Origin: a virus
Lineage: Duplodnaviria > Caudoviricetes
IMG/VR virus record: IMGVR_UViG_3300021387_000072
Location: 1-64,000 of that record
Reading direction: 5' to 3' (one strand)
Length of the DNA stretch: 64,000 nucleotides
Part shown: in pieces, positions 7,741 through 62,666 of the stretch
Position numbering within the stretch: the first letter of the stretch is position 1
Layout: each line of letters begins with the position of its first letter
The notes under the pieces: model-generated
What the model was told of the DNA's origin: nothing
Seen by the model: the letters and a program-made list of their open reading frames with translations, nothing else
The model's database searches: none
Position numbers and translations under genes: made by a program

Positions 7741-10700
7741 TTAAAATCCGAATACAGGAACACCAAGTCCCTGTCTTGTAAGCTCTTTAACAAACTGTTC
7801 ACCAACATGACGGGCAACAGCTTCATAATCTGCTTCATCTTCAAATTTAGCTTCGTTAAGAGTAATGATAACGTCACCGATAGTTGAAGTAGTAGAGTTC
7901 TTAAAGTCAGACGGAGAGAAGTCAGAAAGCATGGAAGGCACCCGAACAAAATCAGAGTACGTATGCATGGCTTCAATAATGTTATCAAACATATTGCTGT
8001 GATACATCTGTTCAGCCGTATCAACGAGTTCTTCAAATGCAGCAGTCTGTTGCGCATTGAGAACACGTTCTTTCTCGTGAACATACAGAAGACCTTCCTG
8101 ATCACCAGTATATGTACCAGTGTCAGCTTTAACAGCTGTCTTAAGTATTCTGTTTTTAACTTCATTCATAACTATGTTTGCCACATTTGATGTCGGGGTT
8201 ATAGTTGGTGTTTTGTTCTTATTTCCATACACCAAATCTGTGATATCTACAACATCATCTTTTGCTTCATCAACAACAGGAGTAATGCTAGGACCGTTCT
8301 TATTATTTTTATTCTTGTTAGAACCTGAGTTGTTAGAACTTCCACCAGATCCACTTCCAGATCCAGAACCACCTTTGCCTCCGACATATTCAGTGCCATA
8401 CCAATCACCAGTATTTGGATCATCATGATACCAAGATGCATTTAAGATATTTGCATCTATCATAGCATCATACTGCTGACCCCACGTGTACAGTAATGAT
8501 TGTTGTTCAGTAGCTGATTTATTAATATAATCATCAGACTGTTTCATAAAATCAAGGAAAGATTCTTTTGTTGCAAGTATTTGATTGATCCAGTCCCAAT
8601 ACGTATCAGTCTGACCAGTCATTTGTTTCCATGTATCATTCCAAGACTGAACCATCTGTTCTTGTGCTTTTGCCAAGCTATTCTTAAATTCATCGACGTT
8701 ATTCTGAAGCCATGCGAAAAGCTGATCGTGGTTCATACCCATAATCTCAGTCATCTCAGATGTGAAGTTATTGGCATCCTCAAGGAACGTAGCAAGCTGT
8801 TCATCACCAGCAGTCACGTAATCATCATAGGCTTTTGTCTGATCATCGATTGAAGCCTTCTGCGCATCTGCCTGTTTCTCAGCAATGTCCCAGCCAATAT
8901 CTTTTTCAATATCAGAGATCTTCTTGCGCATCTCAGCAGCATCCTTGGTACGAGTGCTGTCCATTTCGATAAGCGCAAGCTGCTTCTTGAGTTCAGCAAG
9001 CTCTTCATATTTCTCAGCTTCATCTTCAGCATCTTTGCGCATCTGAAGACGTTCATCAATCAGAGACTTCTCTTCTTCAAGAGCCTGTTTCTTCTTATCT
9101 ATATCTTTCTTTACAAGCTCCCATTCCTTCGTATATCTATCACGTATAGCTTGAAGAATGGTATCCTGCATAGATACTGTACCAGCCAGCATATCTCTCT
9201 GTTTCTGAATACGATTCTGAATTTCCTGTGCAAGCATATCTTCAAGAGTAATCCTTGTCTGCCTGATGGCTTCCTGATTCTCTTCAAGCTTCTTCTGGTT
9301 TTCTTCAATCGTATTGTTGAGTTCAGACATCTCTTCTTCCGCAGCAAGGAGTGCATCACGAAGATCGTACCAGTCATCTGAACCAGACTTTGTAGCCGCC
9401 ATCTGATCTTTAATCTTTTGTATGTTTGTTTCAAGAACAGGCTGATATGCTTGTTCAAGTTTAATCTCTTCTTCAAGCATCTTCCCGTAGTTGGAAAGTT
9501 CACCTTTGTTCTGATATTTTGTTTCTTCGTACTGAACCATCTTAATCTGATGCTCATACAAACTCTTACCGTGTTTGATACGCTTAAGAAGTTTCTGTGC
9601 GTCAGTTTCGGAGTTACCTCCTCCACCACCGCCACCAGATGCTTTTCTGCCAGTACCGCCACCAGCAAAACCTGTCTTTGAAGTATTAAGTTTTGCTGTA
9701 AGCTTTCCGTTTACTTCGCTTATATCCCAGTATGCTTCAACGCCAGCAGCCTGCATCATTTGAATCATAGCAGCAACGTCTTCGTTAATGAAAGCTCCGA
9801 GTTGAGAAAGAACCTCTTCAGAACTCATAGTAACTGTGCCACCAGAAACATAGACTTCAGGCCCGATTATTTCAATAGCACCTTGAGCATTAACTGCATC
9901 TTGAATGTCACTAGTAAATGTATCAATGTAATCGTTGATCATATCGAGATCGCCTTCTTCGGCTCTCTGTAAAGCTTCTTCGATTACATCTGCCTTGCTC
10001 TTATCCGTTAAATCTTTTTTATCGAAACCAGTCATTTCGGAAATCTTATCAAGAACATCGTTGTTCCGATTTCCTTTGCGATACTGTGATCTCCAATACT
10101 GATTATCATTTGCCTGCGCCATTGTCTTGTTCATGTTGGACATGAAGCTAGTTACATCTTTTGCTCTGCCTTTCAACGTATTGAAATTAGAAGCAACTTC
10201 TTCAGCATTGTCTGCATACCTATGAACATCTGAACTATGTTTTTTATCAAAGCCATTATTTACTTTAGACATGACATCAGCAAATTCTTCACCAGTTGTA
10301 GTACCATCCTTGAAGGCAGAGATTAAATCTTCCATACCTTCAACTCCGGTAGCTTGAAGCTCACTATCAACATCAAAGCCTTGAGCAAGCATGTTTTGAT
10401 ATACGCTTCTTGCACTGTTGAGATCAAGTGATGACGCATCGCCAGTCCAATCTGCTCCACCAAAAAGCTTAGACATCAAAGATTCGCCGTACTCAGTTGT
10501 ACGTCCGCTAATACCGTACTGTTTTCCACGGAGATATTCATCGTACATTGGATCTGTAATAATGCCACTGTTGCGTGCTTCAGTAAAAGCTACATATTCG
10601 GAATCACTGATAATATTATTGAACTGTTCATCTGTATACTGATTATCCTCAAGCCAGCCAGTAACATCATCTTTATTATTGAGATCAATACCGCTCTTAG

Positions 10701-13700
10701 CAAATTCTCTTGCCATACCATACAGATTATACGCGGCATTACTCTTTATATTAGAAGCAACTTCATCATACTTATCTTTAAATGGATTATCTGATTCTGA
10801 AGCACCAAGACTTTCAGACCAGCTTTCAATCATTTCTGCAAGCTGTTGAGCTGCAGTATCGCCAGTGCTTTTCAGTGCTTCTACTATAGAAGAAATATCT
10901 ACATCTGGTGTTGAAAGATTTTGATTATCAAGTACATCAGCATACTGTTTCAACTCTGCGTTAAAGAAATCTCTTACAGTATCATCAGACTCTTGCATCT
11001 GTTGTTCAAGCATTTTTCTTGCAAGCGCCTGATTGCCCTTAACCATATCAGCCGTCCAACCATTACCAAGAGCAGAAGCTATCTGTTCATATGTACTGGT
11101 AGAAGCTCTGCCTTGTTCCATTGCATCAAGAAGATATCTGTTGTTAGCGTTAGTACGACTCTGTGCCATGAACTGGCTTTGCAGACTATCTCTGCTGCTT
11201 TGACTACCGCTCCATGCGCCGAGGTAAGATACAAGCTGACTGTAATTATCTTTAGACTTATCAAGATCAAGCTGTTCAATCTCAGCAAGAAGATCTTCTT
11301 CATTACCGTAGTTTACATAATTACTCCAGGAACTGAGTTGGCCCAGGACAGATTGTGCATGCTGACCAAACACATTGTCTCGTTCATCTTCATGTGTCTT
11401 CCACCAATCAAGATACGCCGCATAGTAATTACTTGATCTGCTTTGATAAGGATTTGCATACGGTTCAAGCATAGCCAATGCCTGTTCATCAGTAATGGAA
11501 CCTTCATCTCTTGCTTGGATTAACGTATTAATATCAGCATGATCTTTTATATAGGTACTCCAGTCAACATTCTCAAGACCTTGCATACCTGCGAGAGCAT
11601 CCATTGTCTTTTGTCCGGCATATTGATTATTGCCAAAGATAGTCTGAAGACCAGTAAGTACACTACGTTCTTGTTGATTAGCAAAGTTTCTGCTTGCATA
11701 ATCAAGATTGGAATAGAAGGAACCAAGCTGATCATTGGTAGCCGGTGTATCGAATACAACTTCACCATTTTCGTATCTGGCTCCGATGGATTTTACAAGC
11801 TGTGCTATCTGAGGATTATTCTTTAAGGCATAATTGTATAATGATTCACTGTCCATTTCTAAGAATGGAGATGATCCTAATTGCAGCGTATCAAAGATAC
11901 CTTTGCCAACACCTGTAGTCCAGTTGCTGATGTTGGAATATACATCTGATTCAACATCAGTAAGATTTTGTTCTATGTTTTCCAGCGTTAAATCTTTTCT
12001 GTTGGTAGCAGCCTGAACAGCCTGAAGATTCTGATCAGTCAGTTCACCAGCTCTTATTCTTTCAATAGCTCTCAGTGCGTCACCATACGTCTTCCGTTGT
12101 GAGAGCACTGAAGACATGGTGGACGTACGTTCGCTATACGTGCCACCAAAGCCTTTAATAATAGAGGCTTGTGTTTCAGCCCAGTCAGTCTTACCGACAC
12201 TGCCAGTAAGTATCTGATTAACAAGATCAGCTATAATCTGATCAATGGATCCTACTCCATTAGTAATATAATCTGAGAAGCCAGCGACACCATTAAGATC
12301 TGAAAGTATCTGTGCATTGAATGCATTATCCTGATTAGAAAGAATTGAATCCTGATTATCTCTAAAGTATTTGAGAAGTTCCAACTGATAAGAAGAACCT
12401 TTACCAGTTACCGGATTAAGCATAGCATCAAACATCAGGTTACGGATATTAGCAGGAAGTGTTTCTTCTGATGCATTAAACAATATGTTGGCAAGGTCAT
12501 TACCTTCCATAAACTGTTTAATGGTTGCATCACTGAAACCAGTAAGAGTTGAGAGACTACCTTCAGCTCCGTTTCTCTTATTGCGCATAGCTGTAAGGAT
12601 AGTCTTTTGCATAGAATCACCAGAAGATAATCCATACAAAATACTAGAATAGATTTCAGAGGTCATTTCATTGAATTGATTTTCATCAAACAATACCTCT
12701 CCATTTTCTATACGCACATTAAGTTCTCTTATCGCACTCTTCAACATATCACTTACGCCAGTTCCGAGTGTTTCAATGATTTCATCAGTGTTCATGTCAT
12801 GTTCTAAATCTATTTTATTGATTTCAAAAACATGTTCGAAACCGTTAGCAATACCTTGAACATAATTCTTAAGAGTCGTGTTAATCCGTTCAGTTACTGT
12901 TTGCAATACTTCTTCAAAGTTTCCTGCATCAATTTCCCGATTTGCAAAACTTTGAAGTTCTGACAAAGCAGCAGCTTCGTTTTTCTTCATGTAATCATAA
13001 CTCTTACCTTGAGCAGTACCAGCAGCCAGGCTAACCTTGCTATATGTCCTTAGATTAGACATTAAACCAGCCAATGCGGAAGCCTGCTGATCATATGTAC
13101 CCAAGCCAAAGCTTGAGACAAAAGATCTTGTTGTATCTGCATAATCTGATTCGGCTATATTATCTAAATGCTTAACAGTCTCTATTGCTTTTTCAACATT
13201 ATATCTGTCGTTTACATCAGTGCTGCCACTGATAACTCTATCCAATCCAGCAAAGCGGCTGAGAATATTATTATACTGTTCTCCAGTAACACCGTTTGTA
13301 TCTTGCCATGATTTAGCGTTGAATGTGCCGCTATCAACTTGAGCAAGAATATCAGAAGCCCATCTAGCATACTGTAAACTGTTGGCAGTATCTGTTCCGA
13401 ATTGATATTTATTGTAAAGATAATCAGTGAATTTACTTATATTTTCACCATTCATCAGACGGTCATAATACTCACTGCCAAGCACTTCCTGCATATCAGC
13501 GATAGCCTGTATATCTTTAAGGTTATCTGATTTTGAAAGTGTTCCACGATCTTTGGTTCCAGTTATGATCTGGGATACGTAGTCTTTAACATTAGCAAGC
13601 TTTTCATCATTAGTTCTATATTTCTTGATACCAGTTTTCAGTTCATTAAGCTTATCAGTATCAAGAGTTCCATCTTTATACAGTTCAGTAAAACCGGATA

Positions 13701-16700
13701 GAGAACTAAGTTCTGAGAGTATATACCCCTCAATTAAATCATTTGGATTAAGGACGCCTTTTTTATCTTCATAATATCCAAGCAGTCTATTGTAATATTC
13801 ATTGTTTTTATTAAGTGTAGGATTCCTCATTCCACCTAATAACATGGCAGCAAAAGATCTATCGAGTGTTCCGTTTATACCGGCAGCATAGATGTTGGTT
13901 GCATTGGCGTTGCCTTCCATCCATGTCTGTGTTCTTTCATTATCAATACCAGTAAAATGATTCAAGCCAAACTTTGTGCCTGTGTTATTTAACTTCTCTA
14001 TCATACCAGAATACATAATGTCATCTATATTGCCAGCTTGATTTATACCGGCAAGTAATGAAGCTATAGTATCCTGGGAAATCTTTTGAATTTCGCCTTC
14101 ATCCCATTTGACTTTTCCGTTTTCAATTGTGAGTTTTAAATCTTCAATAGCAGTCTTAAGCCAATCTCCAACTGCGTCGCCCAATGAATCCAATGTGGCG
14201 AGAAGTTCAGTTGTACTCATATCTGTATTTAAATCAACTTTGCCAGAAAGCAATGACGAAAAACCTTCGTTAATACCATCTTCGAAATTCTTAACAAGCT
14301 CGTTATATGTTGATTGTACTGTGGCTTTCATCTGTTCTGCATTCGTTATATCTATATCAACACCAGTAAAGTTTTTAAGTATTTCAAGATCAGATGCTGT
14401 ATACGAACCTACACCAGCATTAAGTCTACGCATAGCAGCTGATGCTTTATCTATTTCATCATTCCTTGCTATAAGCTTTGAATACTCTGAAAGCTGTGTG
14501 CTGTACAATTGACCAGGCGTAAAAGCTTCAACGATGCCTTTAGATATATCAGAGTAGTTTGATTCTTTTATTAAACCAGACGCTATTGCGGCGTTTGTGT
14601 TACGCCTCATAGCGTCAACATCGTAATTTCCAGATTCAAGTTCTGTTTGGGATAACCCCATAAGCTCACGCATATTTCCAATACTTAATATGCGCTCTGC
14701 ATCAGCTTCGGAAATATCAAAATAGTTTGCAATATCTTTTGCAGAAAACTTAGCACCATCATGTTCATTTTTGAAGGCCATTAACTGTCGTGCATAATTA
14801 GCAATTTCAGAATCAGAAAAAGTGCTTACTCCATAAGCATATTGATTTGAAAGAGATCTTAATTCATTGTCACTGATTTTTTCTCCACGCGAAAGTCTTG
14901 CCGCAACATCTTCACCATAAACACTTATAATATCTTGTTGCATACGCTGGCGTAATTGTTCGTCTTCAGCAAGCGTAGTCCATGTCTTATTACCTGAGAT
15001 AATACTTTCTGCATTTGTACGTGCTGAATTCAGAATAGAATTCTTACTTCTATATTGTCCTACTGTTTTGTAATCAGATCCAAGAAGAGAAAGCTGATAC
15101 ATAACTGCATTTATATCATCTTGTGTAATAGTTCCAGCTTCATAATGCTCTGTCATAGTCTTCCATGCTGCATTTAAATCTGCACTCTTGGTGTCAGCAA
15201 GGAAGTTTTCAATATTTCCAAATGCACCAGAACTAAGTGCCTCATCTAAATATTTAACAGCTTGATCTGGTTTATAAAGAAGGTTTTGACCTGTTGCCAT
15301 AAATCTATATAAAGAATCAGCAAGAGATGTAAATCCATTCTTAGGTGTTATTGAATAAACAGAACTAATACCACGGCGTTTAGGTGTTTTATCATTACTA
15401 TCTTCGCCATTTGAATCTTCAGGTGAAGAATGTTCTGCCATATAAGCATCTGCATAATCAAAAAGATTGATTTGTTTAGTAGGTGTTATTTTATTATTGT
15501 TTAAATCTGTTTTGATTTTTTCTATAACACCGGATACAACAGTATTTTCATATCCAGCATCAGTTAAAATTTGTCTTGCTTTTGATTCATCTTGTGCTTC
15601 GAACTGTCCAGCTAATGTGTAGTCTCCAAGTATTCTACCATCTGGATCATCTTTAAAAATAGCTCGTATTATTGCAGCTAATATCTCACGAACATTTCCA
15701 TGCTTTGCATCTACTTTTTTATTACCATTAACTATGAAGTTATCGTAATTTGTAAATGTGACACCAGCATTTTGCATTGCATTTAAATAATCATTGATAA
15801 TATTAGCTAAACTATTTCTGCCTTCTATGGGCATGCTAGATAATTCTGTGCTTTTTCCATTAGCATCTACATAACTAGGCATACCTCTTAAATCTAATCC
15901 ATATAATATATCTGCTATTCTATCAGACCCAGTTTTTCCGTTATTAAGGACAAACGGATCCATTGCTGCTCCAAGAAGTTTAACTCCTAAATATGATCCG
16001 AATGATCTTGCCTCAATATCCGTGATTTCTTTTTGTTCTCTTGTTGTTTCAAACTCATTATTATTGTTGAAAAAGTCTGCCCACATTGCATTCCACAATT
16101 GTTCAAGCTGACGTTTATTAAATTTATCAGTTGAATCGGCTGCATTATCAAGAGCTTCCTTTGTTTTATTTGCGCTTGCAGCCATTTCTTCTATACTGCT
16201 AGACGCAGTATCTGATATTGCGCCAAGATTCTGCAATTCGGTTAATGCATTTTTCAGAGATACACTATCTTTTGCAGAAAGAAAACCTTTCTCGTCACGT
16301 CTTTCGTTTATTTCCGATGCACGTTGTTTTAAAGCTTTTATTCTTTTCGTATTCGCAGCATTTTCTGATTCTATATTATCTTGTACTTGTTCATATTGAT
16401 TATCGTATTTTGGCTGTGAAGAATTAAATATACTTAAACCGGCAACTGTTGCAGCACCAGCAGCAAGACCAAGTATTGGATGCCCGGTCATAAACAGCAA
16501 AAGCGTTGGAAGTAATGCAGCAAATGTAGTAAGAATACCCTCAAGACTACCCATACCGCTTGTAAGTTTTTCTACACCAGCAATAGCATTAGTAAGGAAG
16601 TCTATAAATCCAGTAAGTGCACCGCTGTCTGTGAGACTTTCAACAAGAGAATCAAATGTATTCTTAAGATTGGTAAGAGAAGCATTGAGACTATCGAGAT

Positions 16701-19700
16701 AGTAGCTGTACTTCTCATCTGTCATGCCTTCAGAATTTTCACTAAGCTTCAGATATTTATCAATAGCAGTAACACCATTTTCATCACGTTCTGCCATAGC
16801 AGACATAAGAGCATTGATATTAGAATACTGTCTCTGACCGCCAAAAGCATAAGCAAACTGTCCCTTACGAGCGGGAGAAAGATCATCCCACTGTTCAGCA
16901 ACAGCTGATAAAGCTTTCATAAATGGCAGGCGTTCTCCACCTTTATATATATCTACACCAAGCTGCTTGAAGATATTTGTAAGATCAGAGCCGGAGATCT
17001 CATTACCGTTCTCATCATACATGAGTTCCTTAGAACCAACCTTTGCGTAACGTCCCATGAATGTCTGCATTGCAGTACCGGCTACGTTACCGCCAAGCTG
17101 GGTATTAGCAGTCATTGCTGTAAGCATAGACACAAGCTCATTGAAAGAAACACCAACTTCACTTGCCGCATAGATAGATTTCTGCAGACCTTTGGTGATC
17201 TCAGCCGCAGTGGTGGCGGCTGAGTCACCAAGGGCTGAAATAACATCCATAGCCTGCTTGGCAGAATCAACCATGCCAGAATTCATTGCAACTGTAATGA
17301 GCTTAACTGCATCTGCTGCTTTAACGCCAGCTGTTGTACTGAATTTGATAACCTCATTAAGACGTTCTTCTACCTGAGTATCATCAAGACCTTGACGATA
17401 CAGAGCAGTGGCTGCTGATGTAACATCTTTAATAGGAGCTTTGAGTTTAACAGCAGTATCAATCAGCTTATCTCCAAGACCACCAATCTGTTCATCTGTT
17501 TTCAGAGTAACCATTTGAATCTCAGTCATAGCCTGATTAAACTGTTTGGTAAATTGAATAGCTTCTTGCATAGCTTTACGCCAAATACGAGTACCCAGAC
17601 GCTTTGCTATCATACCAACAGTCTGGCTGATAACAGAACCAATAGACTTAAGAAGATTAAAGGAATGATTGAACTGTTCCTGTTCTTTTCTTGCTCTTGC
17701 TATTGAATCCTGAAGCTTTTTATATTCCGCATCCAATGCCGCAATCTTTGCTTTATTAGATTCTACATTTTCACCTTGATCAACTTTATGTTGAAGCTGT
17801 TCTCTAGCATAATCTAAGCGCTTCATTTTTCCTTCATTGCTTTCGATTATGTTAGCAGCCTGATCCTTCATGCTTTCACGCCAGTTATACTCTTGAGCAA
17901 ATCTTGAAGCTATACCATACGAGCGAGTATATCTACGCATGGCAATATTTCTTTCAAACTGTTCTATCTGACGAGCAGCCTGATTGCCTGCAACGTTATA
18001 TTGATGCACATCCATATCAGTCTGAAGAGTATTTAATCTGCCAGCGTGTGCCATATCACGACTCTGATATTGAGCAAGAAGATTCTTTTCATAATCAGAA
18101 AGTTTTTCAACTTGTCCTTTTATATCTTTTTCTCTCTTCTGCATTGCTTCAATAAGTTTCTTGCCATCTTCAGAATTTTCATCTATCGCATTGCCATTCA
18201 TATCAGTCTTGCTTGTAAGATGGCTTTCTATATCAGCAGCTTCACTTGACAGCTTTGCAATGAGTTGCTTAACCTGATTCTGCTGCTTTTTATAATACTC
18301 CTGGACAGCTTCTACTGGTGAAAGATTTCTACCCCTCGTCAGTTGATCAATATTTATATCATTCGTAGAGATGTCAATATCAGATGCAGTACTGTAGTCT
18401 TGTGCGAGCCTCATGTTCATCTTCTGTTTTTCTTCATCAGAAGCTGCACTCTTACGCACCATCTCTACACCGCTCATGAGTTTATCGGTGAGACTATCAC
18501 TGCCATAAAACAGTGTATTTGTTCTACGTTCAATTTCATGTGTAGATCTGTAATAATCATTATCTTGTAAGGCAGTAAGCTCATCTTTTCTTTTTTCAAG
18601 CGCATCCAATTCATCAAAAACTTCTTGTTGTCTTGCAAGTGCTGCTTCAAATTCTGGAGACTTTTTATCTTTAATGGAGTCGGTCTTCTCACTCCACATA
18701 TCAAAATCTTTTTGTTTTTGCGTAATAGCACTTTCAAGTTTCTGTCTCTCAATAGCATGATTCCTTTGAAGCATATTAGCTTCAGTTGTACCGCGAGAGT
18801 TGAGAAGTTCATTCATCTGTAATGTACTATCAAATCTATCAAGACGTGCAAGAGAATATATATCATTGATAATACCTTCAGATTCATTGTACTGTCTATT
18901 GGCTTCGGTGTATTCACCTCTAAGAGCAGTACGCTTTCTTTCCATGTAGGAACGATTTGTCTGAAGATCAGTTAATCTTTTTTGCTCTTCAGCAGAAAGT
19001 GTAACACCATCATTAGGTTTTAATTCTTCTATTTGCCTATCGATATCTTTAATCTGTTGATTATAATTCTGTATTTCCGCAAGAGTTTTGTTTTTTTTAT
19101 TGAAGGCATCATTACGCTGATTAATTCTACGTTCATTCTCAGCATAAGCTCGACTATAATGACTCTCAAACTCACCGTTCTTTGACATATCCCAACGCCT
19201 GGCTTGAGAAGCCGTAGCAAAGTTGATAGCCTGTGCTTCGTTTAATGTATTAGTTCTGAAGTTACTATTGCGTGCGGCTTCATCTTCTCTTGCGTACCGT
19301 TTATTTCTTTCTTCCTGTTGAGGCAATGTATCAGTCATGGCCTTATTGAAAGATTCTTTAAGACCATTCATTGTCTGTACATACTTTTTCAGATCTTCAA
19401 GAAGAGAAGACTTTTCCGTTGACAGTCCAGTTGCTTTCTGCTCAGTTTCCAGTTGATCTATTTGATTCTGAACCTGAAGAACTTCACTGTTAATTTGATT
19501 TACAGTTTGCTGTGCATCAAGAATCTGATTCTGATACTGCTGAGCAATACGCTCACTCAAAGACATATTCTTGCCGCGAGTCATCTGGGCAAGCTTCTGA
19601 GAAAGAGAAGTAGTTCTTACTGAGATATTAGCACTTGTACCTTCACGAAGAGCTTTCATATAATTCTCTTCTTCTTTGCTTCTCTGCTCGTCAGTAAGAG

Positions 19701-53539: not shown

Positions 53540-53579
53540 CTTCTCCCATTATAGCAATTCTCGAATGAGGAGAAATTTT
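53540..53579 (-). promoter_or_regulatory. 40-bp promoter/operator motif, copy 1
   Basis: Minus strand AAAATTTCTCCTCATTCGAGAATTGCTATAATGGGAGAAG; TGnTATAAT inside an inverted repeat. Confidence 0.7.
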
Positions 53580-53646
53580 TCTGGTTTTGTATGAAGAAAA
53601 ATTTCCTGTTCGGAAATGGGAGAAAGTTTTCTGGGAGAGCTTCCTT

Positions 53647-53686
53647 CTTCTCCCATTATAGCAATTCTCGAATGAGGAGAAATTTT
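53647..53686 (-). promoter_or_regulatory. 40-bp promoter/operator motif, copy 2 (identical)
   Basis: Exact direct repeat of 53540-53579. Confidence 0.7.
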
Positions 53687-53775: not shown

Positions 53776-54099
53776 ATGAAAGAAGACGTACTGTATCTTT
53801 GCCAAAGGATTGCCATAATGAGGAACATTCAAGGCATCTCTCAATCGGAGTTGGCGTACTCAGCCGGTATATCAAGGAATGCACTGAGCGATATCGAGAT
53901 GGGAAAGTCTGTACCGAAGGTCAGCACAGTGATCGACATATGCGATGCTATGAAGATAACCTTCGGCGATATTATGCCGCCAAGGCTATACCCAGCCCCG
54001 CTATCGCCAAGCACGAAGCGCTGGGTGCGCGACGTGCTGCAGGCGATGCGGGGAGTAAACATGGCAGACGTGGAGATTCTGCTAACCAGACTTGGCTGA
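53776..54099 (+). CDS. XRE-family HTH regulator
   Basis: 'GISQSELAYSAGISRNALSDIEMGKSVPKVSTVIDICDAM'. Confidence 0.9.
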   Translation: MKEDVLYLCQRIAIMRNIQGISQSELAYSAGISRNALSDIEMGKSVPKVSTVIDICDAMKITFGDIMPPRLYPAPLSPSTKRWVRDVLQAMRGVNMADVEILLTRLG

Positions 54100-55114: not shown

Positions 55115-55447
55115 AATATGTCCTTTCTGTGTTTTTGTTATTGGTATTGTAATGAAGTGGGGAAGTGGAGTCAAGGAGTTGTAAAGGATTCAGATGAAGG
55201 AATGAGTTGGAAACGGAAAATGAGTTGGAAAAGATCAGTTACTTGCATCCGTTTGGGTGCCGAAACTTTCGAACGGTAATCCCCACCCCTCCGCTCGAAA
55301 GTCATCAGTGCAAGACGTTGTGCTGATGGTTGACGGTGCGGCTGAATCCGCACGTAGCATAAGGCTGGCTGGTTGCTAAAAACCAGCAAAATAAAATATC
55401 CGCAGACACTAAACCACACTGCGGATAATGGAAGGAGGTTCATCTAT

Positions 55448-55837
55448 ATGATGAACTATAATATTTATTCCTATCAGTGGGAGATTATACACTCCCACGA
55501 CGAATTCTGCAACTACACTGAGTTTTCCAAACTCAGTGAGAGCGAGCAGAATGAAATTCTTCATACTCTGATCTCCTATGATCAGGGTATGAGAAGGATT
55601 GATATGGAATTTCGGGATGTTCAGTCCCGGAATTCAATCCTCCTCGCTAAAGGCGAGGACATGGACATCGTTGTCGACTCCATGTGGGCGACGATGCAGG
55701 CCATGGACCGTGACCGTGGCAGGCTTCATAGTAAAGCCTGCGCGGTCCTGCATAAATATCCACGGGTTTTCCCGGGGACTTGGCCCAGGGAAAGGATTAC
55801 CGCCTGGATTAGAACCATTCAGGAGGTGACTGACTAA
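55448..55837 (+). CDS. Hypothetical protein, first gene of plus-strand cassette
   Basis: SD AGGAGG before ATG 55448. Confidence 0.6.
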   Translation: MMNYNIYSYQWEIIHSHDEFCNYTEFSKLSESEQNEILHTLISYDQGMRRIDMEFRDVQSRNSILLAKGEDMDIVVDSMWATMQAMDRDRGRLHSKACAVLHKYPRVFPGTWPRERITAWIRTIQEVTD

Positions 55838-55933
55838 CGTTGATGGATGGACATACAGTCAATAAAGACTGTCTGTCCATTAAAACCCCTACTGTCGTGA
55901 GACAGGAGCTGGTCCAAAGGCCAGGTAAAAGTC
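55832..55933 (+). ncRNA. Twister ribozyme, circularly permuted (P5 type); predicted cut 55881/55882
   Basis: GTT-GA-TGG-P1(ATGGACA/TGTCCAT)-TAA-AAC-C-CC-P3(CTGTC GTGA GACAG)-CTGG-T-CCA-AA-GG-CCAG; P2, T1 and T2 all pair. Confidence 0.8.
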
Positions 55934-56079
55934 GTGTTTGGAGAATTCGCGTGCTTGCCTGCGCGTAGAGTTAGGCAATGGGATCACAACCAATAGTGTA
56001 AAGCTGTAACTCAGCAATATAAATGTCCCGGAGTGGTACAAGCACTCCGGGGACAAATGCGGTGAAAGGAGAGAATGCC

Positions 56080-56241
56080 GTGGATCACCGCTTCACTGTG
56101 GCTGCTGAGATGATCCTTTGGTTCGTCCGCCAGACGAAAAAGGATTTGATCATCTTTGCAGCAAGAGTTGCTTCTGGCAAATATGAACTGGTTTGGTCAA
56201 GCGATTTGCTTGAGTTCATGTTGATGCCAAAACACAACTAA
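56080..56241 (+). CDS. Small hypothetical protein
   Basis: SD AAAGGAG, GTG start. Confidence 0.45.
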   Translation: MDHRFTVAAEMILWFVRQTKKDLIIFAARVASGKYELVWSSDLLEFMLMPKHN

Positions 56242-56304
56242 CTCTTTCTGAGAGATTCCACTCTCTCAGATCACATCCTATAGCAGAGAGAGGAATCTGT
56301 CAAC

Positions 56305-56373
56305 ACGTCCTTGGGCATGACGTTAAACTGCCCTTTGATTATATAAAGACCTGGGCATGTCTCTAAACTGTCT
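56305..56373 (+). ncRNA. Two tandem H-type pseudoknots in the RNAP leader
   Basis: ACGTC-CTT-GGGCA-T-GACGT-TAAAC-TGCCC and AGAC-CT-GGGCA-T-GTCT-CTAAAC-TGTCT. Confidence 0.7.
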
Positions 56374-56398
56374 AATAAAGATAAAGGAGTGTGCAGAC

Positions 56399-59104
56399 GT
56401 GTACATTCTTAAACTTGATGCCCGTCAAAAGTTCGGCTTCGCTGCCGGTGCTGCTGATCCGTTTGAATCTGTTGGAAACGAGTTTCACAATCCCGTTGTT
56501 GTGAAGCTCGGGTCCAATAAGGTTGAGAGGCAGGATCGTATTCCTCTGCCTCGGTATGGGATTCTCCGCGTCAATTTCAGACGCATCGCTATCCCCGACG
56601 AACTCGACAAGGGCTTCAACCCTGATCTCGACCTCTGTCAGGCAGAGGCCGAAGCCCGTGCTCAGCTTTGGCGTGAGCAGGGGTACATCGACCTCTTTGG
56701 TCGCCATTACGTCTTGCTCGATCAGAGCAGCAATGGCGTAAAGGTGGCAGAGGCTGAATTTATCCTTGATGGCTACCGCGATGCCTACCTTGATTGGTGG
56801 CACTGCGGGATGAAGCTTCTGGGTCTCGATCTCCATACTCAGGTGGAGAAAGACGCCAGGGCTACAACTACATGTCTTCCACATTGTTATTACTTTGGGG
56901 AAGATGGATCCATTGAGTATCTTCAGGGCCTGATTCCCGAAATGATCATCGACGACATGGTTATAATGCCGAAAGTGGTCACGGGAAACCACCAGGCACT
57001 TGAAGGAAAAACACGTCTGTTCAACATGACAGACAAACCTGTAGAAGGTGTAGAGCCTGGTCAGGTTGGTATTTCATCTGAAGCATGGGAAGAAACAGAC
57101 TCTGATGGTGGCATCTGGTACGTACTAGATGACACCAAAGAGGATGAGAACTCCCGTAAAATCAAGACCATGGCAAAACAAGGCAAATTCATCTCCTACA
57201 CAATCAACGCCGCTGGCGAAAAAGGTTGTGTAAATATTATCCTTAAATCCACTTTAATTTCCTTCCTTGAAGAGGAAATTAAAGATGGATATATTAAGGA
57301 ATATAAGAGAGATGAAGCCGGGAATCTCATCGCCGCATATACAGAGAACGCGTGGCATGAGAAGGTCAACTTTCTTGGAAAACCACTGTTCGGGACGCCT
57401 GATACCTTTAAGTGGTTCAAGTCTCAGGACTTCAAAATCCCTGAGGGCTGGAGCCAGTTCATCGAAGGATTTAACTCTTATGGACACACCTTTGACGTGT
57501 CCGTAGTTCCACATGTCGTTTGGCGGCATATGCCGTACCAGATGACACTGGGACTCATCCAGTCTAAAGAAGATGCGGATTGGATGATTAATCGTGAAGT
57601 GTCAAATCTTAATTCATACAAAATCCCCGAGGAAGCTGCAAAGCTCCTGCCTAAGTGGATGAGGGAAGCTTTGAAAGTTTACCCCGAACTCTGGCAGGAC
57701 AAATTCTTCCGCTTTTGCGCTCAGGCTGCTTATACAAAGAAGCGTTGGGCCGCAATGGCCGGGAAGCTTGACCGTATGGGAAAATACTTCTTCCTTGCTC
57801 CTGATACTGTCGGTATCTTTAGGGCATGGTGTGGTGACAATCGTCCCTACATCCAGGCTGGTAATATCATTCAGCCTGGTTGTGAGGAAGGAAAGCGAGT
57901 CGTTATGGCTCGCAATCCCTTCCCCGGGATCAATTTCTGTCTCAGAACCCGGCAGAAGATTGATGAAAAGTATTATGGGTTCTACACCTCTAACACTGTT
58001 TATGTTTCCATGCTGGACGATAGCATGGTACGGATGCAGGCCGACTTCGATGGTGATAAGGTGTTCATCATCGAAGACGAAGAGGTATATGCCATGGCTG
58101 AGAAAGCCCTGAAGGCTACTGGATATCTCACCGTGAGGTGGGCCAAGCCTGATGGACATAAGCAGCCTTACTCTGATGAGGTTTTCTGGAATCATGTTCT
58201 TGAAGCCAATACGTCGGAGGTTGGCATAATCTGCTCGGGTATAGTCAAAGTTCGTGCTGTGGACGCACAGCAGAACAAGGACTGGGAAACCAGTACCGCC
58301 TATGATCTTGAGAAAAACGCCATAGGCGAAGCAGCGTGCACCTTGGACATCGACGCTGCCAAAGGTACTGGTGCGAAGGTCCAGGCATGGTACGCCATTG
58401 CAGAAGGCAAAGCATATAAATATGCCAAGCGCCCTCTCCACATGGCGTATCAGAAGAGTTCTCCTGCTCCTAATACTGACGAAGCTGTCGAGAAGAAATG
58501 TAGGGAGTTTGAGAAATCAAACTACTACGGACATCATCTTCTCGATTATGCCACACAGATGATTGGTGTCCTTACGGATGAAACGCTGTATGTGGACGCA
58601 CATAGCAGCGAAGAATTCAGGTATCTCAAGCTGACCAGCGATCCCAAGCATACAAAAGGGAAAGCTGGTCTGGCTGACCTCCTGAGTGAGGCCATCAAGG
58701 AGTTCCGTACCGAGTACGCACGTCTGTGCGCAGCCACGGACAACTCCATGGCTACGAGCGAATTCACGAAGAGGTATTATGAAAACCTCAGAGTGAAGAT
58801 CCTCGCAAGAGGGTTCAACGCTGGCATGACACAGGAAGAAACTGTCGATGCCCTTATCAAGACCGTTTATAACGGCTATAAGGACATCGATATTGCTGCT
58901 CACGAGAAGGAGTTCCGCATTCTGTGGACTTGCTTCGGTGAGGAGCTGGTAGCAAATCTCAAGGCTAATCAGGGAATCAAGAATGAAGATATTGACAACC
59001 CTGAAGATGCCTATTGTCCTGATGAATCTGAAGAGGACTTCGCTGTTCTCGACGAAGACATGTGCTTCGCCGATGAAGGCGATGGCTTCTTCATGGACGA
59101 GTGA
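56399..59104 (+). CDS. Single-subunit two-barrel RNA polymerase (YonO / RNAi-RdRP-like)
   Basis: SDGG, GEKG, ARNP (57911) and ADFDGD (58043-58057) in order; about 900 aa; GTG start after AAGGAG. Confidence 0.85.
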   Translation: MYILKLDARQKFGFAAGAADPFESVGNEFHNPVVVKLGSNKVERQDRIPLPRYGILRVNFRRIAIPDELDKGFNPDLDLCQAEAEARAQLWREQGYIDLFGRHYVLLDQSSNGVKVAEAEFILDGYRDAYLDWWHCGMKLLGLDLHTQVEKDARATTTCLPHCYYFGEDGSIEYLQGLIPEMIIDDMVIMPKVVTGNHQALEGKTRLFNMTDKPVEGVEPGQVGISSEAWEETDSDGGIWYVLDDTKEDENSRKIKTMAKQGKFISYTINAAGEKGCVNIILKSTLISFLEEEIKDGYIKEYKRDEAGNLIAAYTENAWHEKVNFLGKPLFGTPDTFKWFKSQDFKIPEGWSQFIEGFNSYGHTFDVSVVPHVVWRHMPYQMTLGLIQSKEDADWMINREVSNLNSYKIPEEAAKLLPKWMREALKVYPELWQDKFFRFCAQAAYTKKRWAAMAGKLDRMGKYFFLAPDTVGIFRAWCGDNRPYIQAGNIIQPGCEEGKRVVMARNPFPGINFCLRTRQKIDEKYYGFYTSNTVYVSMLDDSMVRMQADFDGDKVFIIEDEEVYAMAEKALKATGYLTVRWAKPDGHKQPYSDEVFWNHVLEANTSEVGIICSGIVKVRAVDAQQNKDWETSTAYDLEKNAIGEAACTLDIDAAKGTGAKVQAWYAIAEGKAYKYAKRPLHMAYQKSSPAPNTDEAVEKKCREFEKSNYYGHHLLDYATQMIGVLTDETLYVDAHSSEEFRYLKLTSDPKHTKGKAGLADLLSEAIKEFRTEYARLCAATDNSMATSEFTKRYYENLRVKILARGFNAGMTQEETVDALIKTVYNGYKDIDIAAHEKEFRILWTCFGEELVANLKANQGIKNEDIDNPEDAYCPDESEEDFAVLDEDMCFADEGDGFFMDE

Positions 59105-59157
59105 CTTTGAAGAGGGAGTGCTGGACTCTACATCCAGCCTCCCTCTTCTCGTTCCCC

Positions 59158-59225
59158 TCCCGCCTGATGAGGGTTAGTGCCAAGCTGGTGACTTGGCGAA
59201 ATGCGAAAGCATAGCGGGAAACCAG
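59158..59225 (+). ncRNA. Type I hammerhead ribozyme variant; predicted cut after 59213
   Basis: TCCCGC-CTGATGA-[8-nt insert, GCCAAG/CTTGGC]-GAAA-TGC GAAA GCA-TA-GCGGGA; loop II CTGGT can pair with downstream ACCAG. Confidence 0.7.
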
Positions 59226-59332
59226 AAGCTTCATCCCGTACAGAGAACTTTTTATGTTCGTCCGAGTTGGCTGATGACGATCAGTGTGAGTGCAACTCTT
59301 ACAACGGGCAAATATATGGAAGGAGGTTGACC

Positions 59333-60226
59333 ATGATGGCAACCTTTAAGAAGTTTTCTGTTTCTCTTGTTAACAGCGAAGGCAAAGAAGTTTATTTCTC
59401 CTTTGCTACGCAGGCCGAAGCAATTCAGTTTTGCCAGGCCGTCCGCTCTGGTTCTAATCAGGTAATTAAGACCTGGAAGTGGAACCAGGATGCCGGCAAA
59501 GCCGAGCTGGTTGATCTGGACAACCAGCCGGATCTCGCCGTCAAGGTGCTGTGGCAGGCACCTGATGGGAGTAATGGCGACCGCGAAATGCCCACCATTG
59601 GTGAGGCAGAAGACGCGGTTCGCCGCGCAATCGGCAAAGGCTTCAAAGCCTACTATACAGTAGGCGGCAAGGCATTTATGCCTGCAGATGTAAAGCCTGT
59701 AAAGCCTACTCCCGCTGCCTTTCCTGCTCCCGTGGAGCAGAAAGCAGCAACCGCTCCCGCTGCTCCCAAGCAGCCCATGGAGGTCCACATCTGGACCGAC
59801 GGAAGCTGCAAAGGTAATGGCAAAGCAGAAAACCGCGGTGGCTGGGCCGCGGTTCTGGTGTGTGGCGAACACCAGAAAGAGATAAGCGGTGGTGTCGCAA
59901 ACACCACCAACAACAGGATGGAACTTCAGGCTGTAGTTGAAGGGCTGAAAGCTCTGAAATTCAAAGCCGAGGTTACCATCCATTCAGATTCGGCCTACTT
60001 CTCTAACGCCATCGAAAAGGGATGGCTTAAGAAGTGGCGCTCGGCAGGCTGGATTAATGCCCAGAGAAAGCCTGTTGAAAACCGTGACCTCTGGGAGGAG
60101 TTCTGTGCACTCTCCATAGAAAAGTGCACACACCTCCACGTTGAAAAGGTTGCCGGTCATGCCGGTAACCCCCTCAACGAAAGGTGCGACACGCTTGCTG
60201 TAGCAGCAGCAAGCGCTGTCGAATAA
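59333..60226 (+). CDS. rnhA: Ribonuclease HI with N-terminal extension
   Basis: WTDGSC, TNNRMEL, HSDS, VAGHAG, NERCD motifs; SD GGAGG. Confidence 0.92.
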   Translation: MMATFKKFSVSLVNSEGKEVYFSFATQAEAIQFCQAVRSGSNQVIKTWKWNQDAGKAELVDLDNQPDLAVKVLWQAPDGSNGDREMPTIGEAEDAVRRAIGKGFKAYYTVGGKAFMPADVKPVKPTPAAFPAPVEQKAATAPAAPKQPMEVHIWTDGSCKGNGKAENRGGWAAVLVCGEHQKEISGGVANTTNNRMELQAVVEGLKALKFKAEVTIHSDSAYFSNAIEKGWLKKWRSAGWINAQRKPVENRDLWEEFCALSIEKCTHLHVEKVAGHAGNPLNERCDTLAVAAASAVE

Positions 60227-60289
60227 CCCATTCCCCAATGACGAAGGGGCCTTGTCAGTTTACTCTGACTTGGCCCCTTTCGTCAACCC

Positions 60290-60360
60290 GCAGAGCACAC
60301 CCTTCGGGGTGTAATGCCCCACTCATAATACGGGCTTGTGAGTGCTGGTTGCAAGGCCAG
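60290..60360 (+). ncRNA. Twister ribozyme, circularly permuted; predicted cut 60312/60313
   Basis: GCA-GA-GCA-P1(CACCC TTCG GGGTG)-TAA-TGC-C-CC-P3(ACTCATAA/TTGTGAGT)-G-CTGG-T-TGC-AA-GG-CCAG; covaries with the 55832 copy. Confidence 0.8.
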
Positions 60361-60522
60361 ACAAGTCAAATGCCGCAAGCTGGTGCGTAATCCAGCAGCA
60401 ATGTGAAAGCCATTGCCACCGCAAGGTGTACGAGACTCCCGGTAGGAGTGACAGTCAGTATCGCACCAATACAACTTAAGCCCCGGTGCTACCAACACCA
60501 GGGCCGGAAAGGGGGATAACCA

Positions 60523-60639
60523 GTGAAGTTCTATTACACTGGCTACTCCGTCATGGGCCGTCTCCATGACGGAAGCTGGATGCCCTTCGCCACAGAGGAA
60601 GAGTACCGCGAGTACTATAACTCCGAAAGCGAGGACTAA
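60523..60639 (+). CDS. 38-aa small phage protein (absent from ORF track)
   Basis: MKFYYTGYSVMGRLHDGSWMPFATEEEYREYYNSESED; SD GGGGGA; resembles small FATExEYxEY proteins recalled from Firmicute phages. Confidence 0.65.
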   Translation: MKFYYTGYSVMGRLHDGSWMPFATEEEYREYYNSESED

Positions 60640-60776
60640 TCCAAAAAGTCCGAAATGAATTCTAGCATAGGTGCTGCTGGAATGCAACCTGGGTGCAGCC
60701 GGTAATCTGCACGTAAGACTGCCTTGCTGGTGGGAGGTCAAACCAGTAATTATTATTTTATACTGGAGGTACCATT

Positions 60777-61208
60777 ATGAAGAACAATACTATGAGCACT
60801 CCTTTGGACATTTTGGCAGAAGATTTTCAGGCCGAAAACGACTGGTGGAATGAAAAGGGCTTCAGGAATCCGGAATCCATGAAGCTCGATGATCTTATTA
60901 AGTATGTAGAAACTCTTAATGAGGATCGTAGGGTTGAATACATCGAATTGTTTGATGAGCATTTTAATCTGTATTTTTGGGATCCCGATTATGGTCCCGA
61001 AGACAGTCTGGCTGATCTAATCGACAGCCCGGACGATCGGATTGTAGATGAATACGAGGAGCGTTTCCCCGTGTATCATGATGAACCCTGGGACTTCAAC
61101 AACGCTTCCGATGAAGAGCAGGACGAGTACCTCGACTGGCTCGAAAGGAGGTGCAATATCGTTACTACTCCTACGATAATTGAAGGGCTTGATGAGCTGC
61201 CCTTCTGA
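60777..61208 (+). CDS. Highly acidic hypothetical protein ending in DELPF
   Basis: SD GGAGG; D/E-rich. Confidence 0.65.
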   Translation: MKNNTMSTPLDILAEDFQAENDWWNEKGFRNPESMKLDDLIKYVETLNEDRRVEYIELFDEHFNLYFWDPDYGPEDSLADLIDSPDDRIVDEYEERFPVYHDEPWDFNNASDEEQDEYLDWLERRCNIVTTPTIIEGLDELPF

Positions 61209-61210
61209 TA

Positions 61211-61290
61211 TGCCGAAACCCGGACTGTCGTGAGACAGGCTGGGTCAACAGGGTGGTGGTTACCCCTGTTCTGATGATGGCAAACCGCTA
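61211..61290 (+). ncRNA. Type II hammerhead ribozyme with pseudoknot; predicted cut after GUC at 61246
   Basis: TGCC-GAAA-CCCGG..CTGGG-TC-AACAGGG-loop-CCCTGTT-CTGATGA-T-GGCA; loop TGGTGGTT pairs with AACCGCTA. Confidence 0.82.
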
Positions 61291-61299
61291 TTCATCAGC

Positions 61300-62245
61300 T
61301 CACCTCTATTTCCCTCCCCCAGGGAAAATCCAGGACAGCACCTGTTCGGGCGGGACATTTTCCTGGCGTGAGCCTTACTTGTTCTTATAGTATTACTTGG
61401 CGTATGGTTGGCGTTTACCCATTCTGGGCGTGTAACACCGCCGCACGGCGGCGGCTTGAACCTGTGGGTAAACTGTACCACATGCTTGGGTTAAGCAGTG
61501 AGTCGTTCACTTCAACACGCTGGCGTGAACCGCGTGTGCGTGGGGCGCACACGGCGTTCACACAGCGACTGTTCCTGAGTCTTGCTCACCTTGCGCAACT
61601 GCTCGGCCTCTCACCGCTTCTATGCGGTATCGGCCTACACAGTTGCTTATGGTGCCATGCTACAGTAACACATTCAATAGACTTGTGTTACCGGCGCAAG
61701 GCGCCTGCTTGGTGATGTGGAGAACGTCGTGAGACAGTTCGGCTCGAAAATCCCACTGGGTCACATGCAAGAGGCTAGGTCTTGCATGATGAATTAGCTC
61801 GGCGAAAGCCATTGAGCTAGTGTCAGTCGGCCTAGCCCCGACAACGTCTCGTCAACCAGACGTTAAAGTTAGGTTGACTTTTTATCCAGACGCTATCATG
61901 GGCGGCATCTGGATGAATGAAGTCCATGCGCAGAGGCTAGTCCTGTAGTTAAAATACTGACTGGTGTGTAGGCCAAGGCCCTACCGGATGGAAAGCAAAT
62001 GACCATCATTTGCCCTGTGGTTGGCAGAGCAACCCAGCCACTGCAGTCTGAAAGATGACTGTGGTCAAATTCAGTCATCCCGAAAGGGATGCATATAGTG
62101 AACTTCATCCAGCATGTCTTGCACAACATGTTGGATGATTATAGCGGATGTTCACCCCAGACTGATGAACCGCCTGCAACAGGCGTGAATTGTTGCTACC
62201 CACATGCAGTGTTTGTGCAGACACTGTATGTGGGTATTTTTTTTC
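61300..62245 (+). ncRNA. Candidate large structured noncoding RNA(s)
   Basis: No credible ORF; many nested stems, GNRA loops, a kissing-loop pair and a pseudoknot; ends at a terminator. Confidence 0.55.
62197..62244 (+). terminator. Intrinsic terminator
   Basis: TACCCACATGCAGTGT...ACACTGTATGTGGGTA-T8. Confidence 0.8.
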
Positions 62246-62372
62246 TTACTTGGCCTAAACAGCATGTGTCATCGTGACACATGTGATATCTTCACCAAAC
62301 GCGGCAAGGCCGCTACTTGGTGATGTGGAGAAGACGTTCTCCAAAAATATATAAAGACTTTGGAGGTTTATC

Positions 62373-62576: not shown

Positions 62577-62617
62577 ATAATGCTCACCGCTGTGATTGGC
62601 GGTGAGCATTATTTTTT
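62577..62617 (+). terminator. Intrinsic terminator
   Basis: ATAATGCTCACCGC/GCGGTGAGCATTAT followed by a T run. Confidence 0.75.
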
Positions 62618-62649
62618 CTCCTCATTCGAAAATTGCTGTAATGGGAGAA
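62615..62649 (+). promoter_or_regulatory. Third copy of the promoter/operator motif (2 mismatches, opposite orientation)
   Basis: TTTCTCCTCATTCGAAAATTGCTGTAATGGGAGAA. Confidence 0.65.
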
Positions 62650-62666
62650 AAGAAAGGATGATGTAT

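Follow-up and report, generated by a model that had tools for sequence, protein, structure and literature searches.

The window analyzed here is the first 64 kb (positions 1–64,000) of the 126,028-bp IMG/VR virus record IMGVR_UViG_3300021387_000072, from a phage that we label G000. It encodes a giant tape measure protein of 6777 residues whose N-terminal module is predicted to fold as a single-chain two-barrel RNA polymerase (RNAP). A second two-barrel RNAP, a divergent relative of YonO, is encoded in a GC-rich cassette that is transcribed away from the structural genes, and a third, by sequence comparison the true YonO orthologue, lies beyond the end of the window. We give about an even chance to the best-supported reading of this arrangement, in which infection would start as in Thermus phage P23-45, with the cassette transcribed by the injected enzyme, and phage polymerases would then take over. 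An earlier note, made from the letters of the window alone, had proposed a programme of two polymerases; further interest comes from a probable independent fusion, a third polymerase, a candidate promoter consensus, and a ribozyme-punctuated polymerase operon.

An RNA Polymerase Fold Is Predicted in the Tape Measure Protein

The tape measure gene (7741–28074, minus strand) is a single uninterrupted open reading frame (ORF), and its product was assigned from profile matches and from its slot directly upstream of Dit and Tal. The tape-measure core is found at residues ~3217–3880 (16435–18426, minus strand), where PhageMin_Tail (PF10145, E = 4e-13), phrog_4211 (3e-22), phrog_4704, phrog_167, and phrog_28 match. 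Dit (6590–7666, minus strand; Sipho_tail, 1.9e-8) adjoins the gene, and Tal (706–6576, minus strand; Prophage_tail, 1.5e-10) follows directly after the tape measure and Dit. The predicted polymerase domain covers residues ~373–1234 (24373–26958, minus strand) and contains a conserved metal-binding loop, DLDGD, at residues 1095–1099 (24778–24792, minus strand).

A search of 1.84 billion representative proteins with residues 371–1570 as the query returned 45 matches, which cover query residues 3–864 and correspond to about 30 representative clusters. The long matches are all proteins of 3699–5632 residues, with the matched region at their own residues ~300–1100, and the short matches look like fragments. 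Judged by these sequences, the fused domain is the conserved N-terminal module of a whole family of giant tape measures.

The fused domain was aligned with 27 homologues of 25–47% identity. In this 28-sequence alignment, the three aspartates of the DLDGD loop (D1095, D1097, and D1099), the RSP motif at residues 1034–1036 (R1034 and P1036), and the motif QxRxxGxKG (Q695, R697, K703, and G704) are kept in at least 90% of the rows. The same residues are D725/D727/D729, R664/P666, and Q325/R327/K333/G334 in the numbering of the structural model. RSP and DLDGD, in the beta-prime-like barrel, are in register with the RSP/RNP...DxDGD of YonO-like proteins. The KG of the basic motif QxRxxGxKG, in the beta-like barrel, falls on K289, which is invariant among the aligned YonO-like proteins and presumably has an equivalent function.

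An AlphaFold2 model of residues 371–1250, calculated from the 28-sequence alignment, has a predicted local distance difference test score (pLDDT) of 85.3 and a predicted template modeling score of 0.81, and the full two-barrel core is modeled with pLDDT >90. When the model was compared with the Protein Data Bank (PDB) using Foldseek, QDE-1 and RDR2 came first (E values of 4e-9 to 5e-5, with QDE-1 at 4e-9), followed by the largest subunits of multisubunit RNAPs. VIA-align against a library of 48,161 representative chains placed five single-chain two-barrel RNAPs on top: RDR2 (Z = 13.7, 485 residues), QDE-1 (Z = 13.4, 522 residues), P74-26 gp62 (Z = 13.0, 403 residues), and P23-45 gp96 (Z = 9.5, 382 residues, and 9.3). 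All remaining chains had Z ≤8.0. At the level of the model, the fold of a single-chain two-barrel (double-psi beta-barrel) RNAP is confirmed, and the fold matches, catalytic motifs, and relatives together uphold the recognition, in the earlier note, of such an enzyme with DLDGD inside the tape measure.

No match to the fused domain was found in Pfam, PHROGs, or the PDB sequences (phmmer), and Pfam and PHROGs are blank over the first 1800 residues of the protein. The same was true of tblastn with residues 1–1800 against 50,697 GenBank phage records and of pairwise BLASTP between the fused domain and the other polymerases. Profile comparison with hhalign aligned it with the combined YonO-like family at a probability of 91% (E = 1e-6, 339 columns) and with the YonO clade only at 51% (E = 1.6e-4, 496 columns). 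The alignment to the YonO-like family starts at the KG motif in the first barrel and runs past the DxDGD in the second, and by profile the fused polymerase weakly resembles the YonO clade. As part of a tape measure, the N-terminal module would be carried in the virion, and it is predicted to be catalytically active.

The polymerase is followed by a further domain at residues ~1575–2100 (22000–23400, minus strand), bounded by low-complexity linkers that are Q/A-rich and P/T/S/Q-rich. It has no Pfam or PHROG match.

Two Further Polymerases Belong to the YonO Family

The second polymerase, of 915 residues, is encoded at 56357–59104 (plus strand; alternative start at 56399) and carries DFDGD at residues 563–567 (58043–58057, plus strand). 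It matches phrog_8308 over residues 347–889 (9.3e-23) and, by BLASTP, the YonO protein of phi3T (2.4e-10) and P0007 (2.5e-13 over 579 residues), a homologue encoded just upstream of an SPbeta-like YonJ/YonG/terminase/YonD/YonB late module. With tblastn, matches were limited to SPbeta-group phages and fell in the gene whose annotation notes similarity to yonO; one GenBank phage labels its homologue an RNA-dependent RNA polymerase. The RxP motif and DxDGD (D563, D565, G566, and D567) are invariant in nine sequences. The model has a pLDDT of 62 overall and of 80–94 in the core (residues 250–590). It matches QDE-1 with Foldseek (E = 2.6e-10) and, with VIA-align, QDE-1 (Z = 16.5), RDR2 (14.4), gp62 (11.1), and gp96 (10.8). 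The phrog_8308 profile, the YonO match, and the fold agree with the earlier assignment of a stand-alone two-barrel RNAP with DFDGD at this place. A phmmer search of the PDB sequences with this protein gave nothing, Pfam has no family for any of the three polymerases, and a word-indexed homologue search with the YonO-like alignment brought no new sequences.

When the phage's own genome was searched with the 915-residue protein, a third two-barrel RNAP was found at genome positions 75666–78530 (plus strand; L003:124–2988). This protein of 954 residues has DCDGD and a Cys-rich C-terminal tail, is 37% identical to phi3T YonO over 666 residues (E = 1e-131), and matches phrog_8308 at 7e-183. On these scores it is the true YonO orthologue. 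The clade of the second polymerase aligns with the YonO clade in hhalign at E = 1.6e-44, which identifies the second polymerase, at the sequence level, as a divergent paralogue of the third. The YonO orthologue lies 17 kb to the right of the second polymerase and heads the replication genes. The pair of two-barrel enzymes that the earlier note described is real as a prediction, and its count of two falls short by the enzyme beyond the window end.

The Polymerases Occur Together in Related Phages

The fused domain is encoded by four IMG/VR contigs, too few complete genomes for statistics on co-occurrence. Relative G002 (105 kb, 95% complete) has its tape measure gene (5453 residues) downstream of the terminase arm, on the minus strand. 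Besides the fused RNAP it encodes a second-type polymerase of 836 residues, the first large gene of the divergent plus-strand arm, which is followed at 1.5 kb by an RNase H; a YonO orthologue (54% identical) comes 17 kb further on, so that the three-polymerase layout recurs. The 27-kb fragment G003 has the fused domain together with a second-type paralogue, and G001 (59% complete) has it with a YonO orthologue. A fused and a stand-alone RNAP are found together in G001, G002, and G003, where the earlier note had named absence of either from close relatives as evidence against its proposal. The YonO orthologue of G001 (L015 and L017) is interrupted in frame by TAG codons, 12 in all, and by no other stop, a pattern suggestive of a phage that recodes TAG.

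On a further contig, L007, a polymerase 65% identical to the second polymerase is also followed by an RNase H.

The Cassette Contains Candidate Ribozymes and Structured Elements

The cassette, about 7–9 kb in size, adjoins the packaging genes and diverges from them. Its GC content (0.496 at 55175–62245) exceeds that of the genome (0.413) and of the tape measure gene (0.381). Composition and strands bear out the description of a GC-richer cassette that contains the second RNAP and is transcribed away from the minus-strand structural arm. Its genes comprise ORFs of 154 and 72 residues, the polymerase followed by an RNase H-domain protein (59201–60226, plus strand; PF00075, 3e-34; phrog_531, 5e-52), and a 143-residue ORF, and it also contains ~1.5 kb of structured non-coding sequence. 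On the cassette strand, the first strong intrinsic terminator comes at 62197–62245 and a second at 62577–62617 (both plus strand), which leaves the cassette itself terminator-free. A scan for sigma-70-like consensus sites gave 19 sites, with 16.7 ± 4.4 expected, and so no excess. There was no plus-strand site at 55.1–56.3 kb, and a TTGACT-17-TACAAT site at 55174–55146 (minus strand) would serve the divergent gene.

At the head of the cassette, direct repeats of GAGTTGGAAA (55200–55233) are followed by a hairpin, forming a conserved element at 55200–55312 (plus strand). The element is common to G000, L007, and G002; the sequence of the hairpin stem differs among them, and its position is kept. 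It might serve as an early promoter, an operator, or a packaging site. On the left, the cassette is bordered by an XRE-type helix-turn-helix (HTH) regulator (53776–54099, plus strand; PHROG transcriptional regulators/repressors, 1e-9), whose L007 homologue has HTH_3.

Four ribozymes had been claimed in the cassette, of which the one at 61211–61289 (plus strand), 3 nt after the stop codon of ORF 60777–61208, is a type II hammerhead at 39.1 bits, over the gathering cut-off of 37 (RF02276). The element at 60289–60360 (plus strand) is a Twister-P5-like candidate, whose RF02684 score of 28.6 bits (E = 0.0085 in 9 kb) is below the gathering cut-off of 37.6. The other two were assigned by eye and by folding, and neither is reported by Rfam at E ≤1. 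One, at 55836–55932 (plus strand), just after the stop codon of ORF 55373–55837, is twister-like (fold z of −5.3) and shares its plan of three hairpins with the candidate at 60289–60360. The other, at 59158–59217 (plus strand; fold z of −3.7), is a hammerhead-like three-way junction with CUGAUGA, GAAA, a GAAA-capped stem III, and a stem I of CCCGC/GCGGG. A further hammerhead considered at 55255–55345 was rejected, as its core is CUGAUGG with an insertion and the relatives have a plain long hairpin there.

The ribozyme positions can be followed in relatives. In L007, a hammerhead of 37.1 bits, above the cut-off, follows the same small ORF, and the twister-P5 candidate is near-identical. Several non-coding blocks, including most of 60307–60709, are more conserved than the proteins between the two phages. 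The equivalent cassette of G002 has a textbook-looking type I hammerhead at 78655–78715 (plus strand; L030:18655–18715), with CUGAUGA, GAAAC, GUC, and three stems, which was missed by Rfam at E ≤0.1.

Other observations were made in the cassette. Upstream of the polymerase gene, 41 bases (55945–55985, plus strand) are identical to L007, and the 72-residue ORF (56023–56241) is an insertion in G000 between this block and the polymerase start. About 1.3 kb at 60363–60709 and 61290–62196 (plus strand) are GC-rich and hairpin-dense, with no convincing ORF and no Rfam family at E ≤1. They share long identical stretches with L007, where the proteins encoded nearby are only 65% identical, and are possibly novel structured RNAs. 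A motif with the core CTTGGTGATGTGGAGAA occurs in three copies (61443–61471, 61696–61724, and 62304–62332, plus strand), the last of them flanked by a strong terminator and by a small ORF whose ribosome-binding site is good, and again at the equivalent place in L007 (10363–10377). It is a candidate for a cassette-internal promoter or an RNA motif.

A Promoter-like Element Flanks the Cassette

A promoter-like element (PE), with the core CATTCGAGAATTGCTATAATGGGAGAAG and a conserved length of ~30 nt, was found at several unit starts. Two tandem copies at 53536–53682 (minus strand), seen as exact 41-nt repeats at 53.54 and 53.65 kb, face the structural arm. A third copy, at 62615–62654 (plus strand), faces right and marks where the cassette ends, immediately behind the second terminator, and a fourth lies at the start of the YonO orthologue (genome position 75.65 kb, plus strand). 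This last copy overlaps the annotated start of the gene, whose true start may be Met18.

In L007, the PE is present on both flanks of the cassette, facing outward: on one side in the position of the 53536–53682 copies, and on the other, as the counterpart of the 62615–62654 copy, at 11458. G002 has a variant, ACATTCGAGAATGGATATATATGAGAAGGGA, in four copies, of which one stands before the terminase arm and another separates the tape measure from Dit, and G001 has a further variant; both relatives have the element in the position of the 53536–53682 copies. In both G000 and L007, the element is absent inside the cassette and points outward on both flanks; the cassette is the sole region that is bracketed by the PE and yet free of it. 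The GC content, the sigma-70-like scan, the terminators, and the outward-facing PE on the flanks together speak for the cassette as a separate transcription domain.

In the SPbeta-like contig L004 and in phi3T (L001), a search of the region before the late operon found no PE. A block of the PE beside the TATA box is conserved at a position where a sigma-A −35 element would not lie. This conservation, with the absence from the SPbeta-like contig, suggests that the PE is a promoter for a phage polymerase. The sequence TGCTATAAT within the PE matches the extended −10 consensus, which the G002 variant fits less well.

Comparison with Characterized Phage Polymerases

In P23-45, the first ~1124 residues of the 5002-residue tape measure are a virion RNAP, which transcribes a 9-kb pre-early block from AT-rich promoters; among the genes of the block is that of the non-virion RNAP gp64, for which the promoters are GC-rich, and the late genes are left to the host RNAP (Chaban et al. 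2024, PMC10770324; structures PDB 8H2M/8H2N and 8F5M). In its GenBank record, this block (genes 59–77) diverges from the terminase and structural arm, as in G000. The two phages share a giant tape measure (6777 residues in G000, 5002 in P23-45) with a two-barrel RNAP and DxDGD, starting about 330–370 residues from the N terminus, and a stand-alone two-barrel RNAP in a block of ~7–9 kb that diverges from the terminase arm. The resemblance does not extend to sequence: hhalign of the fused domain gave <1% with gp96 and gp64 (0.9% with gp96), the hmmsearch score was −0.8, and BLASTP found no match, in a comparison with gp96 and gp64 as single sequences, which very remote homology may escape. The tape-measure fusion probably arose independently of the Thermus fusion, or else has diverged beyond recognition. 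The connector between the barrels is ~160 residues long, compared with 67 in gp96, and therefore the flat, clamp-less shape of gp96 may not apply. Other differences from P23-45 are the host, a mesophilic gut bacterium and probably a Firmicute, the temperate lifestyle, the third polymerase, and the GC-rich cassette with self-cleaving ribozymes. The P23-45 system was demonstrated by experiment; that of G000 is predicted from sequence.

SPbeta is likewise a temperate siphophage of the Firmicutes type. Its single YonO enzyme is encoded just upstream of the late operon, which it was shown to transcribe in a study that gave no promoter for it (Forrest et al. 2017, PMC5467207), and SPbeta has no tape-measure polymerase. 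In G000, the YonO orthologue instead lies at the front of the replication genes, with 20 kb between it and the beginning of the late arm.

N4-like phages and crAss-like phi14:2 (gp66) also inject a polymerase for the early genes, as part of a very large virion protein; they are podoviruses and lack a tape measure. The enzyme of N4 belongs to the T7-like type and not to the two-barrel one. The phi14:2 gp66 enzyme (PDB 6VR4) is two-barrel, with Z scores of 6.2–7.4 against the two models of G000 polymerases. A two-stage, host-independent programme of two-barrel enzymes, as proposed for G000, is shared with phiKZ and AR9, myoviruses whose enzymes are multisubunit and packaged in the head, whereas those of G000 are single chains, one of them tail-carried. 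Hammerhead and twister ribozymes are found clustered in bacterial and phage genomes, and the candidates here follow this pattern in lying within a few kb of each other on the coding strand, each closely preceded by a stop codon. They differ from it in punctuating an operon with an RNA polymerase and an RNase H, at positions kept in a relative.

Full-text literature searches found no paper on a tape-measure-fused polymerase outside the Thermus phages. Supplementary Data 4 of Chaban et al. (PMC10770324), a table of phage two-barrel RNAP genes with, in the rows covered, two entries per genome, has neither "tape measure" nor "TMP" among its words and mentions "YonO" three times, two of these mentions being two entries from one record.

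Proposed Transcription Programme and Its Rivals

In the P23-45-like reading, the polymerase would be built into the tail within the tape measure; an infecting particle would eject it into the envelope of the cell, and the enzyme would transcribe the first DNA to enter, namely the cassette. The long transcript would be cut into units by the hammerhead and twister ribozymes and would yield the second polymerase and the RNase H, which may clear the RNA-DNA hybrids left by simple single-chain enzymes. The polymerases made by the phage would then read the PE and so transcribe the late structural arm, the unit starting at 62.6 kb, and the YonO and replication unit. Such an injected-RNAP programme was already the core of the earlier note. 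The fused and cassette polymerases that it invoked are both present, and the order of events that it set out is plausible only, copying P23-45, which the note did not cite.

Several points weigh against this reading. A folded polymerase of ~100 kDa must traverse the tail tube or unfold in it. No sequence link to gp96 was found, and therefore the functional analogy rests on architecture. That the cassette is the first DNA to enter is an assumption about the physical ends of the genome, as the 56-bp terminal repeat of the record is probably an assembly overlap. The phage, by its integrase, is temperate; prophage induction proceeds without an injected enzyme and therefore needs another route into the cassette, through the host RNAP. 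The XRE-type regulator and the divergent gene with its sigma-70-like promoter stand at the left edge of the cassette, and only one of the four claimed ribozymes passes the Rfam threshold. With TGCTATAAT, the PE of G000 could be read by the host sigma-A RNAP, and the pairing of each enzyme with a promoter is our inference. The YonO orthologue is a better candidate for late-gene transcription than the cassette enzyme, and independence from the host RNAP was inferred, not shown, in the earlier note.

The main rival, which we consider less likely, is that the host RNAP starts the programme. The cassette would then be an ordinary temperate-phage operon of the immediate-early class, on which the XRE-type regulator and the divergent 262-residue gene act through the GAGTTGGAAA sites. 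The stand-alone polymerases would be middle and late enzymes, as YonO is in SPbeta, and the fused enzyme would be an accessory that pulls in the DNA, makes primers, or boosts early expression on infection only. The integrase fits this explanation, as do the regulator at 53776–54099 with its HTH_3 homologue in L007, the minus-strand TTGACT-17-TACAAT site, the conservation in relatives of the operator-like repeats at 55200–55233, and the expression of the SPbeta early genes and yonO before YonO acts (PMC5467207). Induction of a prophage, moreover, cannot draw on an injected enzyme. The scan, however, placed no plus-strand sigma-70-like site at 55.1–56.3 kb and gave no overall enrichment, and the P23-45 precedent argues for the other start. 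The catalytic residues of the fused polymerase are kept across the giant tape-measure family, which indicates a selected enzymatic role. This conservation (three aspartates, RSP, and QxRxxGxKG in at least 90% of 28 sequences that are only 25–47% identical), together with a full two-barrel core modeled at pLDDT >90, also makes it very improbable that the N-terminal domain is a polymerase-derived, non-polymerizing plug with a structural or DNA-binding role and that the stand-alone enzymes alone transcribe. Such a plug would agree with the marginal similarity of the domain to characterized polymerases, as there was no BLASTP, Pfam, PHROG, or PDB sequence match, with the DLDGD in place of DFDGD around the middle aspartate, and with an activity that is predicted only.

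We also consider it highly doubtful that one or more of the three enzymes is RNA-templated, in the manner of QDE-1 and RDR2, or priming, for example copying the ribozyme-bearing RNA of the cassette. The best structural matches of both models are these RNA-dependent RNAPs, a GenBank phage homologue is annotated as one, and the second polymerase has an RNase H and long, conserved, structured RNAs as neighbors. YonO, gp96, gp64, and phi14:2 gp66, however, are all DNA-dependent (PMC5467207, PMC10770324), and QDE-1 and RDR2 lead partly because the PDB sequence and fold searches gave no YonO-family match.

Beyond the P23-45-like start, the same observations would allow a bolder scheme, which we hold only tentatively and think rather unlikely. 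In a group of temperate gut siphophages, an independent, YonO-related fusion would stand at the head of a three-step cascade (injected enzyme, cassette enzyme, and YonO orthologue) that makes infection largely independent of the host RNAP, with the roles of the PE, the ribozymes, and the RNase H included. If so, the PE would supply the YonO family with its first promoter consensus, and the ribozymes and RNase H would process RNA and clear R-loops for single-chain polymerases that are blind to terminators.

The only tape-measure-fused RNAP demonstrated by experiment is that of a Thermus phage. A fusion from an unrelated family in mesophilic gut phages would make tail-delivered transcription a recurrent solution and not an oddity of thermophiles, and the tape-measure-polymerase architecture may well have arisen by convergence. 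With three polymerases, the PE, the head-of-cassette element, and a ribozyme-cut operon, the locus offers test objects that could settle how YonO-type enzymes find their promoters, a question unsettled since 2017, and could reveal how the use of an injected polymerase is made compatible, in a temperate phage, with induction of the prophage.

Genome Context and Other Features

The record has a CheckV completeness of 100% and a 56-bp terminal repeat, which is probably an assembly overlap of the circular form and not a physical end. The whole is taken as a complete 126-kb temperate siphophage genome, of which the window is the left half. A tyrosine integrase beside the record ends, outside the window (genome positions 124624–125856, plus strand; L026:624–1856; Phage_integrase, 4e-18), is the basis for the temperate lifestyle. 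The minus strand carries the genes from 177 to ~53.5 kb, a siphovirus packaging, head, and tail arm with the large terminase TerL (49671–51314, minus strand; Terminase_6N, 5e-5) near its head, and the plus-strand genes begin at ~55.4 kb. To the right of the window are Sak, a primase-helicase, DNA polymerase III alpha, and a SpoIID/NlpC-P60/SH3 endolysin, the last of which points to a Firmicute as the probable host. A DHH phosphoesterase, a ThiF/E1-like protein, and a reverse transcriptase (RVT_1, 3e-26) stand in a row, outside the window, at genome positions 70637–74357 (plus strand; Pfam matches).

Matching DNA comes from animal-gut metagenomes. Pieces 100% identical to the window, from both the structural arm and the cassette (for example, 60243–60640 and 61602–62178), were also found in four animal-gut metatranscriptome runs from two studies; these pieces are contigs, from which strand, ends, level, and even RNA origin are not readable. 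A loose contig end at 53535 in these data was set aside as only an assembly jump between the PE copies.

Two tRNA genes, Ser-TGA and Thr-TGT, sit between the PE copies and the terminase genes. A 178-residue ORF at 52229–52765 (minus strand) overlaps the well-scoring tRNA-Ser at 52615–52698 (minus strand) and is probably spurious or shorter than annotated.

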